Origin: Treponemataceae bacterium
GTDB taxonomy: Bacteria > Spirochaetota > Spirochaetia > Treponematales > Rectinemataceae
NCBI GenBank assembly: GCA_963677895.2
Contig: CAXXGJ010000018.1
Location: 160,001 to 224,000 of the forward strand
Reading direction: 5' to 3'
Length of the DNA stretch: 64,000 bases
Positions 11,301 through 17,300 of this stretch are shown here, one piece after another. Every line of letters begins with the position of its first letter. Position 1 is the stretch's first letter. The position numbers are program-made.

Positions 11301-14300
11301 ATCTTGATAAAAGTCGGCCTGTCTCCCTTCCAGGCCCACTTCTTTGTCTTCTATTATTCCTGCCTCTCCACCGTCTCGCCGCCGATCGCCCTCGCGGCAT
11401 ATGTCGCGGCGGGTATCGCCAACGCCAACACCGACAAGGTCGGCTGGATGGCCTTCAGGCTCGCGCTCGCCGGCTTCATCGTACCTTTCTTCTTCATCTA
11501 CCAGCCCGGAATGCTTCTTATGGGTCCGGACGCGGCAGGAAACCTTGTCCTGAATGGCGCGAGCACGCTCAACATAATCATGTCGGTCATTTTCGGCCTC
11601 CTTGGCACCTGGTTCCTCGCTGTCTCGGTTGAAGGCTACTTCCTTATCAAGTTCCCCGTGTGGGTCCGCCCCATCTTCTTCATCGGCGCGATTCTCCTGA
11701 TAGCGCCTGGACTCACCTCGAGCCTGATCGGTTTGGCTGTTTCGGCGGTCGGAATAGCCATCATCCTGCTCATCAGGAAAAAGCAGGGAAATACTGGCAC
11801 CGGAACGCCGGTCGCCGCGTAATGGATCCTCGCCGGGGCCAATGCCCCGGCATGGTATATGAGAAATGAGCATTTTCTATTTTTTCAAGGAGGACGTATG
11901 ATGAAGAATTCTGCGAAAATCGCCGTCATCGCGGCGCTTCTCGTGCTGGCCGGCTCGGTGGCTTTTGCCGCCCCGATCAAGCACCTCACCATGGGCACCG
12001 CTGGTGTCAGCGGCACCAACTATCCCACGGGCATCGCCATGTGCCAGCTCTGGAACCAGAACATCGACGGCATCAAGGCAGTCGCCATAGCGACGAACGG
12101 CAGCCCTCACAACATCGACCTGCTCCGCACCCGGGACATCGACGTCGCTCAGTGCAGATCCCTCGAGGCTTTCCGCGCCACCAACGGCACGGCCCCCTAT
12201 CCCGAGAAGATGCCCTGGATCCGCGCCATCTCCGGCGGCCTCTTCGCTGACGTGTTCCAGGTCGTGGCTCGCAAGAGAAGCGGCATCACTTCGGTTGCCG
12301 ATTTCAAGGGCAAACGCATCGCGGTGGGTCCGGTAGGTTCCGGCGGTGAAGTCGATGCCCGCGAAACGCTCGCGGCCTATGGCCTCACCTACAAAGACAT
12401 GAAAGTCAGCTTCGTCGAATATACCCAGGGCGTCGAAATGCTCCAGGACGACCAGGTCGACGGCGCCATCCTCGGCCTCGCCCTCGGCGCGTCCGGAATG
12501 ACCGAGCTCATGCTGGACAACAAGACCATCCTTGTCCCGATAACCGACCAGGCTCTCGCGAACCTAAAGAAGGTCAACCAGTTCTACATGAGGCGCATGA
12601 TTCCGGCCAACACCTACCCGAATCAGCCGAACGCGGCCGCCACCGTCGGCACGCCTCCCGATGTCATCATCGTGCGCGACGACATGGATGCCGATCTCGT
12701 CTACAAAATGACGAAGACGCTCTATTCGAACCTTCCGACGATTCAGGCCGTTTCCGCCAATCTCAAGCAGTTCACGAAGGATCTCGTGCTCCCCGACGAC
12801 CAGATGCTCGTACCCTATCACCCCGGTGCCAGGAAGTACTTCGTCGAGCAGGGCTGGCTCAAATAAGTCCTGACGATCGATAGAAACCGCTGATTGGGGC
12901 GACCCGCGATGCATTCGCGGGTCGCTCTTTTTTTGCATTCGCCCTCTCTTTGTCAGCGGATGTTTTCCGGTTCCCTGTATCCCGACTGTCTCTGGTGTGG
13001 ATAATCCCAGGTCTCCGACGGCAGGAAAGTCTCTTTGATCGTCCTCACCGAAGTCCAGCGGAGGAGATTGAAGACGCTTCCCGCCTTGTCGTTGGTGCCC
13101 GAGGCCCTCGCCCCGCCGAAAGGCTGCTGGCCGACGACGGCTCCCGTCGACTTGTCGTTGATGTAGAAGTTGCCGGCGCAGTCCGAGAGGGCATCCGACA
13201 TTTTCTCGATCACCTTCCTGTCGTTAGCGAATATAGACCCCGTCAGCGCGAAAGGGCTTGTGGCGTCCACCAAAGCCAGCGTTTCTTCGAACTTGTCGCC
13301 GTCGTAGACGTAGACCGTCAGGATCGGGCCGAAAATCTCCTCAGTCATGAGCTTGCCCGCTGGATTGTTCGTCTCGATTATGGTCGCCGGTATGAACCAG
13401 CCTTCGCTGTCGTCGCAGTCGCCTCCAACGATGAATTTGTATTCGTCAGGCTTGGCCTTGGCGTAGTCGATGTAGGAAACGATGTTCCTGAAGGCTTTTT
13501 TATCGATGACCGCCCCCATGAAGGTGGAAAAGTCCGCGACATCGCCCATGGCGGCGGACTCCGCGAATCCGACGAGCTTGTCCCGAACCCGCGGCCAGAT
13601 GGAGCGGGGTATATAGGCGCGGCTTGTGGCCGAGCATTTCTGCCCCTGGTATTCGAAAGCGCCGCGGAACAGCGCCACCGACAGAGCCTGGACATCGCAG
13701 TCCTCGTGGGCGATGAGAAAATTCTTGCCGCCCGTCTCCCCGACGATGCGGGGGTATACTTTATATCGATTCGCCGCGAGGTTATTCGCTATGTCGACCC
13801 ACATCGCGTTGAAGGTGGAGGTGGAGCCCGTGAAGTGCAACCCAGCGAAATGTCGGCTGGCGATGGCCGGCCCGCCGACGCTGGCCCCGTCGCCCGGAAC
13901 GAAATTGATCACCCCGGGAGGCAGGCCGGCCTCCTTCAACAGCTCCATGATATAATAATTGGAGAGCACCGCGGAGCTGGCCGGCTTCCAGACGACCGTG
14001 TTGCCCATCATGGCGGGAGCCGTCGGCAAATTCCCGCAGATGGACGTGAAGTTGAAAGGCGTCACGGCGAAGACGAAACCCTCGAGGGGCCTGTACTCCA
14101 GCCTGTTCCATGTCCTCTCCCCGTTATGCTCGGGCTGCATGGCATAGATTTGCCGGGCATAATGAACATTGAAGCGGAAGAAATCGATCAGCTCGCATGC
14201 CGAGTCGATCTCCGCCTGGTAGACGTTCTTGCTCTGTCCCAGCATGGTCGCCGCGTTCAGCTTCTGGCGGAACCGTGTGGACAGAAGGTCGGCAGCCTTG

Positions 14301-17300
14301 AGGAATATCGCGGCCCTGGCCTGCCAAGGCATACTCTTCCATTCGGCCCGGGCTTCGACCGCTTTTTCGGCCGCCATGGCAACCATCGCGGGGCTCGCCT
14401 TGTGATAGGTCGCCAGCAAGGCCTTATGGTTGTGGGGCGAACGTATTTCGCCCATAAGTCCGGTGCGAATTTCTTCGCCCCCGATTATCAATGGTATTTC
14501 GATTGGGCTGGATCCCTGGCGCGCAAGCTCGAGGGCGAGCGCTTCCGTTTCGGGACAATCCGGCGCGTAATTGTAGACGTGTTCGTTGCGCGGAAAGGGT
14601 GAGGAAAAAATCCCGTCCTGCATGATGAGCCTCCTTTCCAAGCATGGGAGATCCGCCTCTTTCGGGACGAACCCATTGGCTTATCCCCATAGAGCCGATC
14701 CAGTGGAAGGAAGGGTCCTTAGGCGGTAAAAGCTTCAGAGCATCGAGGAAAATGTATCATTATATGCGGAGGGAGAACAGCCAGGCGGCCATTATCTTAC
14801 CGGCAGCCGCTATTTTACGGGCGGACATTATTTATGGGCAGCCGGATCGTGAACACAGAACCTTCTCCCGACCAGCTCTCCGCCTGCACCGAGCCGCCGT
14901 GGGCTATGGCGATATGGCGCACGATGGCGAGCCCCAGGCCCGTTCCGCCGGATTTCCTGTCCCGTGATTTGTCGGCTCGGTAGAAACGCTCGAAGATGCG
15001 CTCCAGATCAGGGGCGGGAATTCCAGATCCCCTGTCCCTGACGCGCATCTCGACGAGACCGTTTTTGGCTTCCGCTTCGAGCGTCACAGAAGAGCCCAGC
15101 GGCGAATATCGTATGGCGTTTTCGAGAAGATTGGTGAGCGCCTGCTCGACGAGGCCCGGGTTGGCCGTAAGGCGAAGGCCGCTCTGGATGGCGGATTCCA
15201 GCCGTATCGACTTCAGTTCGGCCTGATTTTTCACGTTCTCGAAAGCCGCCATGCCTATGTCCTCAACGAGACAGGATTCCAGGCTGAGCCATCCGGAAGG
15301 GTCCTTTTCGAGCCTGGCCAGGGACAGAAGATCCTCGACGATCCTTTCCATACGAAGCGCGTTCCTCTCGATTATCTCGAGGTATCGATCCGACGCTTCG
15401 CCCTCATAGCCACCAGAGCGGAGGGTTTCCGCGAAACCGCGGATGAGGTGGATAGGCGTGCGCAGCTCGTGCGAAACATTCGCGACGAAATCGGTGCGCA
15501 TGGTTTCAAGCCGTTTCATCATGCTTATATCGCTGATCGCGAGGACGATGCCCTGCTTTTCCGCGCCGCCTAGTAGCGACGCGTTGACCTGCACGATCTT
15601 TTCGCTTCCGGGATAGAGATTCACCTCATCGGCGACAGCCGTGCCCGAAGCGATGCAACGGTTCGCGATCGACACGAGGCCCGAGGTTCCGGCAATTTGG
15701 GAAAGGAGAAGGCCGGGGAGGGTTCCCCGCTCGGCGCCCAGCATCGCGTGGGCGGCGGGATTGGCCTCGATGATTTTGAGGCGGTCGTCGAGCGCCATGA
15801 TGGCCTCGCCCGCCGAATCGAGAATCGCCGAAAAGCGTTTGCCCAAAGCCTCGGCCTCAGCCGCCCTTTTGTTTAGGTCGGCGGCCATCGAATCGAGGGA
15901 TTCTTCCAGAACCTTCAGTTCGCGCGGCATGTGGTCGGCTTGACCGCGCCGGGAAGCGTTCAGGGAATCGTGCCGGGAAGCCGCGCGAGTCTCCGCCACG
16001 GTATCCGATTCCATGCCGCCTTTCGCGTAACGCCGGGCTCGGTCGGAAAGCAGGACCACGGGACGATCGAGGATGCGCACCAGGGCCGCGCTCCCGGCGA
16101 GGGCGGCGAGGGCGGCGGCGAGCGCGGCCAGGATCATGGATCTTTGGGCGTCGCCGAGGCTTTCCATGAGGCCCGGGAGGGGAAGGGCCAGGCGCAGGGC
16201 GCCCGTTATGGTTTTTCCGTCCAGAGAGCGCAGCGGAATGGCCGCGTAAAGCATCCATTCGCCCAAGGTCGTCGAGAGACGTCTGGACCAGGAAGCCCTG
16301 CCCGCGAGAGCGCCGGCGACTTCGGGTCGGTCGGAATGGTTGGACATCGAAATGGAATCGGCGCTTGAATCGCCCGCGACCTTCCCCGAAACGTCGATCA
16401 GCGTAACTCTATAGCCCGATTCGGCTCCGATACGGGCGCAGAAAAAGGCGGCCGTACCGGGATTCGAAGTCGAATTCCAGTCCTCGGGCAGAAAAGCGGC
16501 CGCCGCCGCGGCGGCCCGTTCAAGACCGTCGGCGTTCGACCTGATGTACGCTCTCTCGGAGATAGCTATGCTGAGCGCGAGGACGAGGACAGCCACCGCG
16601 AGGACGGCCGCCGAAATAACCGCCAGACTCCTGGCGAAAAGGCTCCGTCTCACGGCGTGCCCCTGAATCTATACCCAATGCCCCGCACCGTTTCGATGAA
16701 GGCGCCCTCGTCGCCCAGTTTCCGCCTCAGCGAAAGGATATGAACGTCAAGGGAGCGGTCGGTGACGGGATAATCGTCGCCCTTCGTTTTCGCGATGGCC
16801 TGCGCCCTCGTAAACACTCGTCCAGGTTCGCGCATCAGAAGCTCGAGAAAGGCAAATTCCGTAGCGGAGAGGTTTATGGGTCTTCCCCTCGCGAATACCT
16901 CGTGCCGCATTGGATCGAGGACTATCCCCGAAACCTCCAGGGAATCGCTCTTTTTTTCCGTCTTGCCTTCGACGCGCCTGAGAAGCGAACGGATTCGGGC
17001 GACGAGAACCTTGGGGCTGAAGGGTTTGGCTATGTAGTCGTCCGCGCCGAGGTCGAGACCGACGACGACGTCCGCTTCCTCCCCGCGCGCGGAGGCGATG
17101 ATGACGGGGAGTACGGCGCTTTTCGGCCGCGAGCGCAGCGCGCGCAGGACGGCGAGGCCGTCCATGCCGGGGAGCATGAGGTCGAGGACGCAGAGGCTGA
17201 AATCGTTTTCCGCCATGAGGGCAAGGGCTTTTTCGCCGTTTTCGGCATTGAGACTCAGCCAGCCTTCCTTGCGGAAGGAGACCGCGAGAAGCTCAGCGAT

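Follow-up and report, generated by a model that had tools for sequence, protein, structure and literature searches.

We describe a riboswitch of the Moco class (RF01055), of the type lacking helix P3, that overlaps the start codon of a pterin-free enzyme gene in a Treponemataceae bacterium, holds the Shine-Dalgarno (SD) sequence of that gene within its P1 helix, and is conserved together with the gene across two families. By homology the enzyme is P5C (L-glutamate gamma-semialdehyde) dehydrogenase (P5CDH). The riboswitch would turn P5CDH off in the presence of cofactor, and the most likely logic, which we hold with about even confidence, is one of sparing, in which tungsten aldehyde:ferredoxin oxidoreductases (AORs) are used instead. 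To our knowledge, every gene so far described under the control of a Moco/Tuco riboswitch has to do with synthesis, import or use of the pterin cofactor, and isozyme sparing among riboswitches has so far been known for B12.

A P3-less aptamer at the start of a P5CDH gene

The window, as we call the whole stretch of 64,000 nucleotides analyzed, has its position 1 at position 160001 of contig C18, and the RF01055 match is C18:174615-174752 (minus strand) in contig coordinates. The features of the locus, in window coordinates, are these:

12896..12928, no strand: terminator-like hairpin, 14 bp, G+C-rich, between the P5CDH and TAXI-TRAP genes, which converge
12953..14623, minus strand: P5C/L-glutamate gamma-semialdehyde dehydrogenase gene, 556 aa, monocistronic (TIGR01236, Aldedh and PDB matches)
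14615..14752, minus strand: Moco-class (RF01055) aptamer, P3-less, overlapping the coding start (Rfam match and our model R1)
14630..14634, minus strand: Shine-Dalgarno GGAGG; the inner P1 3' strand is formed by four of the five bases
14660..14663, minus strand: GAAA tetraloop closing P4, which spans 14649-14674 (Rfam alignment and sequence)
14679..14686, minus strand: P2a 3' strand GGAUAAGC, partner GCUUUUAC at 14726-14733 (three-way alignment A4)
14687-14691 and 14718..14723, minus strand: UAUGG and CCUAAG halves of the 11-nt tetraloop receptor in P2 (sequence and class description, Regulski 2008)
14737..14744, minus strand: P1 5' strand GAUGCUCU (sequence; consistent with the P1 columns of the Rfam and R1 alignments)
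14759..14764, minus strand: TATAAT hexamer, possible -10 box, 6 nt upstream of the aptamer match (sequence)

A preliminary description of this locus had placed an RF01055 match over the start codon of an Aldedh-family gene of 556 amino acids, and both points are borne out: the match (36.4 bits, E 5.6e-05, full model 1-135) covers the ATG at 14623-14621. Its score lies close to the gathering score of 36 bits. Our own covariance model R1 (alignment A2), built from 23 leaders of other genera only, with the genus of the window excluded, gives the element 53.4 bits (E 3.8e-13), and on this sequence comparison the borderline score is not due to chance; the element is real. Other RF01055 matches in a whole-genome scan lie at C37:2972-3109 (plus strand, 39.4 bits) and C2:67585-67730 (minus strand, 56.2 bits).

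The partner of the P1 5' strand is in two segments, 14634-14631 and 14627-14624, with a 3-nt bulge (14630-14628) between them. The segments conserved in the class (CUC.GA, CCUA, AUGG, GCC, CUCCC and UUGGAAAGGAG) are all found in the window copy, together with the GNRA tetraloop on P4 and its receptor in P2 that characterize the class. Helices P1, P2, P4 and P5 are present at a score above the gathering threshold and are backed by covariation in relatives, while the P3 columns of the Rfam model are deleted, as in the P3-less ('Tuco') subtype. Judged by sequence and predicted structure, the element is a true member of the Moco class of aptamers, P3-less ('Tuco/Wco') in type, and its ligand is probably Wco rather than Moco. 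Two P2a mismatches (U14729/U14683 and A14727/G14685) occur in the window copy and in neither the C37 copy nor that of the sister species G099 (alignment A4); given these and the score at the cut-off, the window copy may be weakened. A spacer of 190 nt separates phoR from the P5CDH gene and contains the riboswitch; a consensus promoter scan of the locus found no full sigma-70 site.

The identity of the enzyme is well supported by homology. The protein scores 787 bits against the full-length equivalog TIGR01236 (cut-off 613.6 bits), its residues 12-544 aligning with positions 1-532 of the 533 in the profile, and 333 bits against Pfam Aldedh. Its best PDB matches are 4idm (617.8 bits) and ALDH4A1 (about 541 bits), all 16 PDB matches at E<=1e-60 are P5CDH or PutA, and the catalytic residues E296 and C330 are invariant across 14 orthologues (alignment A3). 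The gene is therefore, on homology, that of a true P5CDH, pterin-free and NAD-type, and the gene downstream of it is convergent. A proline-derived semialdehyde had earlier been suggested as substrate; the enzyme is indeed a bona fide P5CDH, but our searches found no proline dehydrogenase, and ornithine aminotransferase (OAT) is present in all 47 P5CDH genomes. Glutamate semialdehyde is most likely supplied here by OAT.

The Shine-Dalgarno sequence in P1 and the predicted OFF sense

The GGAGG sequence on the P1 3' strand precedes the ATG by 7 nt. Among relatives, all 26 aligned leaders share GGAAAGGAG without change, and the distance from GGAG to ATG is 5-8 nt in the leaders read. A ribosome-binding site inside P1 has been read as an OFF arrangement, demonstrated for moaA (Regulski 2008, PMC2408646), and the same argument, made there for E. 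coli moaA, predicts that the window riboswitch is an OFF switch because its SD lies within P1. An identical GGAG-then-ATG layout is found in relatives before TupB/TupC/MoeA operons (tungstate transport) and in the leader of a MalE-like/Oxidored_molyb ABC operon; for these only feedback repression makes sense, which lends support to the OFF sense.

In the mechanism that we propose, binding of the pterin cofactor to the aptamer would close P1, whose 3' strand is the SD of the P5CDH gene and stops one base short of the AUG; the ribosome would be excluded, and no P5C dehydrogenase would be made. When cofactor is scarce, P1 would open and P5CDH would be translated, to oxidize glutamate gamma-semialdehyde/P5C to glutamate with NAD(P)+. 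With tungsten cofactor available, aldehyde oxidation would thus fall to the tungsten AORs, and with the cofactor lacking the cell would fall back on the pterin-free dehydrogenase. We infer both the OFF response and a functional overlap between P5CDH and AOR, and consider a swap of one enzyme for the other plausible. Among RNA runs we found none that contains this stretch.

Conservation of the pairing

The preliminary description had noted the same pair on contig C37, and this locus is about 90% identical to that on C18 over 4.5 kb. Their leaders differ at only about 6 of 138 positions, as against some 10% for the locus as a whole, which points to constraint. In the sister species G099, an insertion of about 105 nt lies between aptamer and SD.

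The pairing is kept in kin, as had been claimed, and more widely than was then apparent. Our survey of the order took in 151 genomes with 47 assessable P5CDH loci, and Rfam places RF01055 directly upstream of P5CDH in 26 of them, to which R1 adds three remodelled variants and one weak match. Every one of the 26 leaders lacks P3, reading GCC-(G/A)AU-GGG with no insert, and P5CDH accounts for 26 of the 122 RF01055 matches in the order's sample. When covariation was measured in 23 related leaders with slid alignments as controls, 86.7% of cells paired, against 29-50% in the controls, and 15 pairs had changed on both sides; in P4, such changes affect 6 of 10 pairs. At the P5CDH genes of G127, G035 and G115, the closest orthologues from other genera (69-71% identical), neither Rfam nor R1 detects a riboswitch. 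Riboswitch-bearing loci occupy at least three separate places on the P5CDH tree. The tree has 7-9 changes of state with frequent loss, and remnants are seen in G006 and G141. Among 80 loci surveyed in other phyla, one has the riboswitch, a Cloacimonas MAG with a P3-less match of 56.6 bits.

Aldehyde oxidoreductases and cofactor supply

Three AOR genes had been reported in the window genome, and three AFOR_N matches agree with this. All three products are closest to the P. furiosus AOR 1aor (W-AOR), with the FOR 1b25 only fourth or fifth. We know of no AOR that uses glutamate semialdehyde. The W-dependent FOR is reported to prefer C5 di/semialdehydes (PMC12096430), and an AOR of Aromatoleum aromaticum to take over for a deleted aldehyde dehydrogenase (PMC6365974).

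The earlier claim that one RNA class fronts both enzymes stands, since RF01055 also precedes AOR operons in relatives. Its companion, that with plentiful cofactor the cell relies on its AORs and switches the dehydrogenase off, is supported in part: the SD in P1 predicts the OFF sense, but the whole-genome RF01055 scan places no riboswitch at any of the three AOR genes here. The co-occurrence counts, which are not independent because the genomes compared are kin, are as follows: AOR is present in 29 of 29 genomes with a riboswitch-bearing P5CDH and absent from 8 of the 17 whose P5CDH has none; P5CDH or AOR is found in 67 of 68 OAT genomes, and AOR in 20 of the 21 OAT genomes without P5CDH. Nine AOR-bearing genomes have P5CDH without the riboswitch, which counts against sparing. 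In G085 the riboswitch-P5CDH module has an AOR gene on one side and, on the other, a riboswitch-tupBC-moeA operon, the leader of which contains P3.

The AOR leader of G052 would fit an ON switch, because the 3' half of its aptamer pairs with the SD region (-21.9 kcal/mol; none of 1000 shuffles as good). Across AOR leaders, shuffles matched such pairing in 0/1000, 3/500 and 12/500 cases for three leaders and in 39, 104 and 380 of 500 for three others, so that the evidence from folding for an ON reading is mixed. We regard as tentative, and as less likely than not, a reciprocal swap, in which P3-less riboswitches would turn P5CDH OFF and tungsten AOR ON, in anaerobic spirochaetes and independently in Cloacimonas; its ON arm would be an anti-SD within the aptamer core (CCUCCC) of the AOR leaders.

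Cofactor supply in this organism may be external and variable, since searches of the window genome (92.8% complete) turned up no MoaA above cut-off, no MoaC and no MoeA_N. Auxotrophy is no general explanation, because 22 of the 29 riboswitch-bearing genomes have MoaC.

Alternative explanations

A real OFF riboswitch might serve the routing of a pathway and not the replacement of AOR, a possibility that we find somewhat unlikely. When cofactor is plentiful, ornithine-derived glutamate semialdehyde could be reserved for proline synthesis, or a futile cycle avoided with an AOR acting as carboxylate reductase, and P5CDH would be required only in a cofactor-poor metabolic state. Routing is in keeping with an enzyme that homology of family and structure marks strictly as P5CDH, with the presence of OAT in all P5CDH genomes and the failure to find proline dehydrogenase, with the reported ability of AORs to reduce acids (PMC12096430), and with affinities of the three AORs that mark none as semialdehyde-specific. 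However, the module has no linked gene that would belong to such a route. In the loci examined the P5CDH gene is monocistronic, and replacement is matched equally well or better by the presence of AOR in all riboswitch-bearing genomes and by the AOR-adjacent module of G085.

That the window copy is decaying or already inactive, with P5CDH constitutive and the pairing of importance only in relatives, seems quite improbable. The near-threshold Rfam score, the two derived P2a mismatches and bulged P1, the insertion that uncouples aptamer from SD in the sister species, and the frequent losses on the tree would all suit decay; yet the conserved junction nucleotides, tetraloop and receptor are intact, the leader has diverged from its C37 counterpart less than the locus as a whole, and P1 still covers the SD. 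Improbable, too, is a different ligand (metal-free molybdopterin, Moco instead of Wco, or another pterin) or activation in place of repression. According to Regulski 2008 (PMC2408646), direct binding was never demonstrated for the class, the cofactor being unstable; the equation of P3-less with Tuco is a correlation, and P3-containing copies in the order precede TupB-type transporters, a poor fit to a simple Mo/W split. What the P3-less copies control (AOR and the pterin-domain ABC operon) nevertheless points to a tungsten-type cofactor, and activation of P5CDH would be hard to build where P1 contains the SD and the window leader shows no other helix that could sequester it.

Relation to known systems and biological meaning

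The window element shares P1, P2 with its receptor, the GAAA loop of P4, P5 and the junction with the Moco RNA motif (RF01055) of the E. coli moaABCDE leader, in which the ribosome-binding site likewise lies within P1 and OFF control is predicted. It differs from known Moco/Tuco riboswitches in its gene, which neither makes, transports nor uses the cofactor. P3-less RNAs, 58 of 176 and correlated with tungsten cofactor use, were linked with hardly anything but MPT synthesis or enzymes that use Tuco (Regulski 2008, PMC2408646), and neither 'dehydrogenase' nor 'pyrroline' occurs in the main text of that paper. The preliminary description took a sparing role for this class to be new, and our literature searches, which found no publication on a pairing of Moco-class riboswitch and P5CDH, agree; however, Regulski 2008 had floated an alternative between Tuco and Moco enzymes. 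There, P3-less RNAs precede putative Moco-using sulphite oxidase genes of S. wolfei, and the proposal resembles ours in that a Tuco-sensing RNA represses an enzyme replaceable by a Tuco-dependent pathway. In that proposal a Mo enzyme is swapped for a W enzyme, as a possible exception in one organism, whereas here the enzyme is pterin-free and two families are involved.

The logic proposed here, an OFF switch on a cofactor-free enzyme required only in the absence of cofactor, would be that of cobalamin riboswitches before metE and nrd (Sun et al. 2013, PMC3766115), where 'Isozymes of B12-dependent enzymes' form a regulon category and the MOCO regulon holds biosynthesis and transporters only. 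The two B12 isozymes catalyze the same reaction, whereas an AOR counterpart acting on glutamate semialdehyde is hypothetical. In Aromatoleum aromaticum a tungsten AOR is reported to replace a missing NAD-dependent aldehyde dehydrogenase (PMC6365974), although that case concerns phenylacetaldehyde, a proteobacterium and no riboswitch.

The P5CDH gene would thus be a conserved member of the Moco/Tuco regulon that encodes a pterin-free catabolic enzyme, extending isozyme-sparing logic to the Mo/W cofactor, and its leader and those of AOR genes offer natural versions of one aptamer for study, predicted OFF and putative ON. Tungsten aldehyde oxidoreductases may share substrates with P5CDH, a testable hint on the long-open question of their role in fermenting bacteria. 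Were the reciprocal swap true, ornithine/arginine fermentation would include a step in which tungsten AOR, with ferredoxin, oxidizes glutamate gamma-semialdehyde to glutamate; this would give AOR a new physiological role and provide, for Moco/Wco, a first parallel to the B12-metE logic.

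A conserved Moco-class leader in front of the P5CDH gene

A match to the Moco RNA family RF01055 fills the spacer that runs from the stop codon (14815) of a gene for a PhoR-like kinase to the ATG (14623) at which the gene for P5C (L-glutamate gamma-semialdehyde) dehydrogenase (P5CDH) starts. The preliminary description had placed a Moco riboswitch here, and both the call and its coordinates are correct: with the window starting at contig position 160001, the full model is matched at 36.4 bits, the gathering score being 36. The features of the unit are as follows.

14615-14752, minus strand: RF01055 Moco RNA match
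14663-14660, minus strand: GAAA tetraloop
within the RF01055 match, minus strand: CCUAAG/UAUGG tetraloop receptor
14634-14631, minus strand: GGAG, part of the P1 3' strand
14627-14624, minus strand: CAUC, part of the P1 3' strand
12953-14623, minus strand: P5CDH gene

Because the Rfam score is borderline, an independent test of the element was made on 151 sampled genomes from its order; among these, RF01055 has 122 matches at E<=0.001, in 67 genomes. A MAFFT alignment of 26 P5CDH leaders contains invariant GA, CUA, GCC, GAAA-loop, UCCC and UUGGAAAGG blocks. RNAalifold recovered only P4 and P5 from this alignment. A hand-written structure with P1, P2a, P2b, P4 and P5, modelled on the Rfam consensus, was checked against the 23 leaders that come from other genera: 86.7% of their cells are paired, and sliding the 3' partners by 1-3 columns lowers this to 29-50%; both sides have changed at 15 of the 31 pairs, and the observed covariation score was reached by none of 500 shuffles. 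Our own covariance model from the same 23 leaders (R1) gives the window element 53.4 bits (E 3.8e-13) and its copy on C37, a second contig with a variant of the locus, 59.9 bits. This score and the covariation in kin make the window element a member of a well-supported leader family. A thermodynamic fold of the window leader by itself was uninformative (z 0.65), and minimum free energy folds of the aptamer alone did not yield the consensus structure every time.

The tetraloop and its receptor are both described for the Moco class in section 5 of Regulski et al. 2008 (PMC2408646). In its Rfam alignment the window element lacks the P3 hairpin, and in 26 of 26 aligned leaders P2 (GCC) leads through (G/A)AU directly to P4 (GGG). 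According to the same paper, P3 is absent in 58 of 176 Moco RNAs, and its absence correlates with use of the tungsten cofactor ('Tuco'). The window element is a real, conserved, P3-less RNA of the Moco riboswitch class.

This copy has weak points, in that two derived substitutions break P2a pairs (U.U and A.G) relative to C37 and the sister species G099, and P1 has a 3-nt bulge. Between C18, the contig of the window, and C37, the leader shows about 6 differences in 138 nt and the locus about 10%, the leader being the better conserved. In G099, an insertion of about 105 nt between the aptamer and the Shine-Dalgarno sequence (L006, G099:C41, about 3020-3124) holds a perfect 13-bp hairpin (GCCACAAAUUUCC / GGAAAUUUGUGGC) without a U-run behind it, and may represent a small repeat whose insertion uncouples the switch.

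The dehydrogenase and its substrate

The 556-aa product belongs to the Aldedh family and matches the equivalog model TIGR01236 with 787 bits (cut-off 613.6); its best solved-structure matches are all P5C dehydrogenases (4idm, 617.8 bits; mitochondrial ALDH4A1, about 541 bits), and 14 orthologues show no change at the catalytic residues Glu296 and Cys330. That the enzyme is a broad aldehyde dehydrogenase was considered and rejected on the TIGR01236 and PDB matches. A role in proline degradation, in line with the earlier thought that the enzyme might act on proline-derived semialdehyde, was set aside because a Pro_dh search of the genome under study (G000) found no match. A true ornithine aminotransferase (OAT) is present (TIGR01885, 562 bits), as is an OAT in all 47 genomes with P5CDH. 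Given the presence of OAT and no Pro_dh, the likelier source of the semialdehyde is OAT, and the P5CDH substrate most likely derives from ornithine.

The P5CDH gene stands alone, the downstream gene for a TAXI-type TRAP binding protein being convergent, with a strong hairpin between them. Upstream on the same strand lie genes for the PhoR-like kinase, a PhoB-like regulator and PstB (14815-19138), so placed that the riboswitch-P5CDH unit follows phosphate regulon genes, with no evident minus-strand terminator in the 190-nt spacer.

Predicted sense of the switch

In the window leader, GGAGG is the Shine-Dalgarno sequence, with the AUG 7 nt downstream, and its GGAG is paired in P1. No terminator was found between the aptamer and the P5CDH start, and a promoter scan gave no sigma-70 site. 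In the leaders of relatives GGAAAGGAG is invariant; in those that were read, GGAG and the start codon lie 5-8 nt apart, and in one subgroup the AUG itself is part of P1. Regulski et al. 2008 (PMC2408646) read a Shine-Dalgarno sequence within P1 as the layout of an OFF switch, repression being demonstrated there for E. coli moaA. The same succession of GGAG and start codon is found before tungstate/molybdate-type transporter and MoeA operons of relatives, and before a MalE-like ABC operon in G000 and relatives; for both kinds of operon, feedback repression is the sole sensible sense. Since this layout is shared with operons that fit feedback repression only, we interpret the P5CDH switch as being OFF when cofactor is high, most likely acting, to judge from its layout, on translation.

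Distribution of the pairing

P5CDH orthologues at E<=1e-80 occupy 48 places in 47 genomes; a contig end cuts one of these places, so that 47 loci can be assessed. As the preliminary description had proposed, the pairing is kept in kin: when the RF01055 and P5CDH tables for the 151 genomes were crossed by hand, a same-strand RF01055 match preceded P5CDH at 26 of the 47 loci (25 genomes), overlapping the gene or ending within about 35 nt of it, or within 104 nt in G099.

The 21 loci lacking an Rfam match were re-scanned with R1. Three, all in genus g2, gave 52-62 bits (L040, 3024-3191; L041, 3868-4093; L047, 1616-1788). Their leaders are remodelled, with CUCCC changed to C-CGC, GGAAAGG to GCAAAGG and an insert of 35-51 nt in the P5 loop, and one of them reaches only 15.5 bits by Rfam; because they score high by R1 and low by Rfam, they are kept apart as remodelled variants, which may have a variant binding core or be decaying switches. 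A weak full-length match was seen in G141 (24.1 bits; L038, G141:C197, 4886-5034), and nothing above 12.2 bits by R1 at the other 17 loci, where G006 retains a remnant, the 3' part alone (11.7 bits; L039, G006:C16, 5667-5711). An intact riboswitch is kept in G021 and G089, the nearest relatives of G006 and G141, whose own leaders look like recent losses.

Outside the order, 584 P5CDH loci in other phyla were confirmed, and the best 80 of them were considered. As R1 detects distant Moco RNAs poorly (locus L083 reaches 24.8 bits by R1 and 56.6 by Rfam), all 80 were re-scanned with Rfam, and RF01055 was found in one of these best 80, the Candidatus Cloacimonas MAG locus L083, where a terminator-like hairpin lies between a P3-less RNA and the start of P5CDH.

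In a quick maximum-likelihood tree of 65 P5CDH sequences (the outgroup row L060, mis-extracted and with a branch length of 10, is to be ignored), the window's genus groups with the riboswitch-free orthologues of G127, G035 and G115, apart from a large clade with the other riboswitch-bearing loci; sequences from other phyla branch between the two in an order that the tree does not resolve. Riboswitch state requires 9 changes on this tree, 7 of them forced by well-supported branches. The pairing is therefore one that has been gained or lost repeatedly, which argues for a functional link and not a frozen accident.

Targets of Moco RNAs in the order

Genes behind the 122 RF01055 matches in the order
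P5CDH: 26
PBP_like_2/TupB-type ABC transporters, with or without MoeA and MoaC: about 47
MalE-like binding protein and Oxidored_molyb-domain protein: 21
YdhY-like ferredoxin and YdhV-type aldehyde:ferredoxin oxidoreductase (AOR): 21
AOR directly downstream: 2
FecCD-type ABC transporter: 1
Unknown or contig end: 4

The 47 or so transporter assignments were made by the presence of MoaC no more than about 5 kb downstream (32), by NCBIfam (1), by Pfam (10) or by ORF sizes and leader likeness only (4), and those to YdhY/YdhV by position relative to AFOR_N matches (18 of 21) or by NCBIfam/Pfam searches (the rest). The earlier claim that this RNA class fronts AOR as well as P5CDH genes is borne out by the YdhV-type operons and the two AOR genes directly downstream. 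Among the 118 classifiable matches, no cofactor-free enzyme other than P5CDH was found; P5CDH is the sole target neither cofactor-related nor cofactor-dependent, and is among the commonest. In the Rfam alignments, P3 is absent before P5CDH, the MalE-like/Oxidored_molyb ABC operon and the AOR gene of L137, and present before the TupB/TupC/MoeA operons and the YdhY-ferredoxin/YdhV-type AOR operon.

Both subtypes meet in one locus of G085 (L007, C2:61000-71000, 681-9390), which holds an 862-aa AOR, a P3-less RNA with P5CDH, and a P3-containing RNA with a 297-aa ORF, TupB, TupC and MoeA, MoaC lying further along. In G061, another member of this genus, the AOR and the tup-moeA module occur without P5CDH, as if a riboswitch-P5CDH cassette had been inserted or lost. 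The strongest Moco RNA of G000 precedes an ABC operon (L004, G000:C2:60000-72000, 2772-7731) encoding a MalE-like binding protein, a protein that in relatives has an Oxidored_molyb (pterin-binding type) domain, and a fused permease. In L188 (G121:C577, 109-1830), a Moco RNA is followed by a 338-aa ORF without a family match and a FecCD-type (BtuC/siderophore-like) permease; to our knowledge, such transporters are not usually tied to this riboswitch.

AOR and the case for cofactor sparing

If P5CDH is switched off when tungsten cofactor is plentiful, AOR might take over aldehyde oxidation. Each of the 29 genomes in which P5CDH has a riboswitch (the weak G141 included) also has an AOR, which is missing in 8 of the 17 P5CDH genomes without a riboswitch; 67 of 68 OAT genomes have P5CDH or AOR, and 20 of the 21 OAT genomes without P5CDH have AOR, counts that are not independent because the genomes compared are kin. 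The nearest structure to each of the three G000 AORs is the tungsten AOR of P. furiosus (1aor). Against sparing, P5CDH is kept without a riboswitch in 9 AOR-bearing genomes, none of the AOR genes of G000 carries a riboswitch, and we know of no AOR that uses glutamate semialdehyde. In its favour, a 2025 review (PMC12096430) gives glutaric dialdehyde as the compound for which tungsten FOR shows the lowest Km and names glutaric semialdehyde as a possible substrate, and the AOR of A. aromaticum was purified from a mutant without the pathway's aldehyde dehydrogenase (PMC6365974).

In the leader of the G052 AOR gene (L137, C191, 3544-3713), the 3' half of the aptamer (GCCUCCC...UUUGGAA) can pair with the leader up to the Shine-Dalgarno sequence at -21.9 kcal/mol, a value reached by none of 1000 shuffles (-9.7 +/- 2.9 kcal/mol). 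Such complementarity was matched by 3 of 500 shuffles in G059 (L148, C112) and 12 of 500 in G057 (L138, C176, 3412-3643), the complementary part in all three being the conserved CCUCCC-P5 segment of the aptamer; it was not significant in three other AOR leaders (39, 104 and 380 of 500 shuffles). On these predicted pairings, some AOR leaders, those of the G052 type, look like ON switches, which fits sparing.

As to cofactor supply, searches of G000, which is 92.8% complete, gave no MoaA (over cut-off), no MoaC and no MoeA_N, and none gave MoaC in the sister G099; MoaC is present in 22 of the 29 riboswitch-bearing genomes. G000 nevertheless encodes a 699-aa enzyme of the DMSO-reductase family (bis-MGD type; C38:79922-81184, L134 6749-8845), so that AOR is not its only pterin enzyme. 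The 577-aa AOR of C18 is clustered (C18:286000-302000, L133 5022-14349) with a GntR/FCD regulator, an RraA-like aldolase, an Ldh_2-family dehydrogenase, an SDR, an IolN-like hydrolase (3-dehydro-scyllo-inosose hydrolase, 525 bits) and a TRAP transporter, in what looks like a carbohydrate/inositol-type pathway with an aldehyde as end point.

The preliminary description had held a sparing role to be new for Moco riboswitches, and the literature searches fit this: no report of a Moco riboswitch paired with P5CDH was found in them, nor in the main text of Regulski et al. 2008. As far as the categories of Sun et al. 2013 (PMC3766115) go, those for MOCO comprise biosynthesis and transporters only, an 'isozyme' category being kept for B12. 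We infer that the cell would do without P5CDH when cofactor for AOR is plentiful, cofactor sparing being the best available explanation for the riboswitch on this gene.
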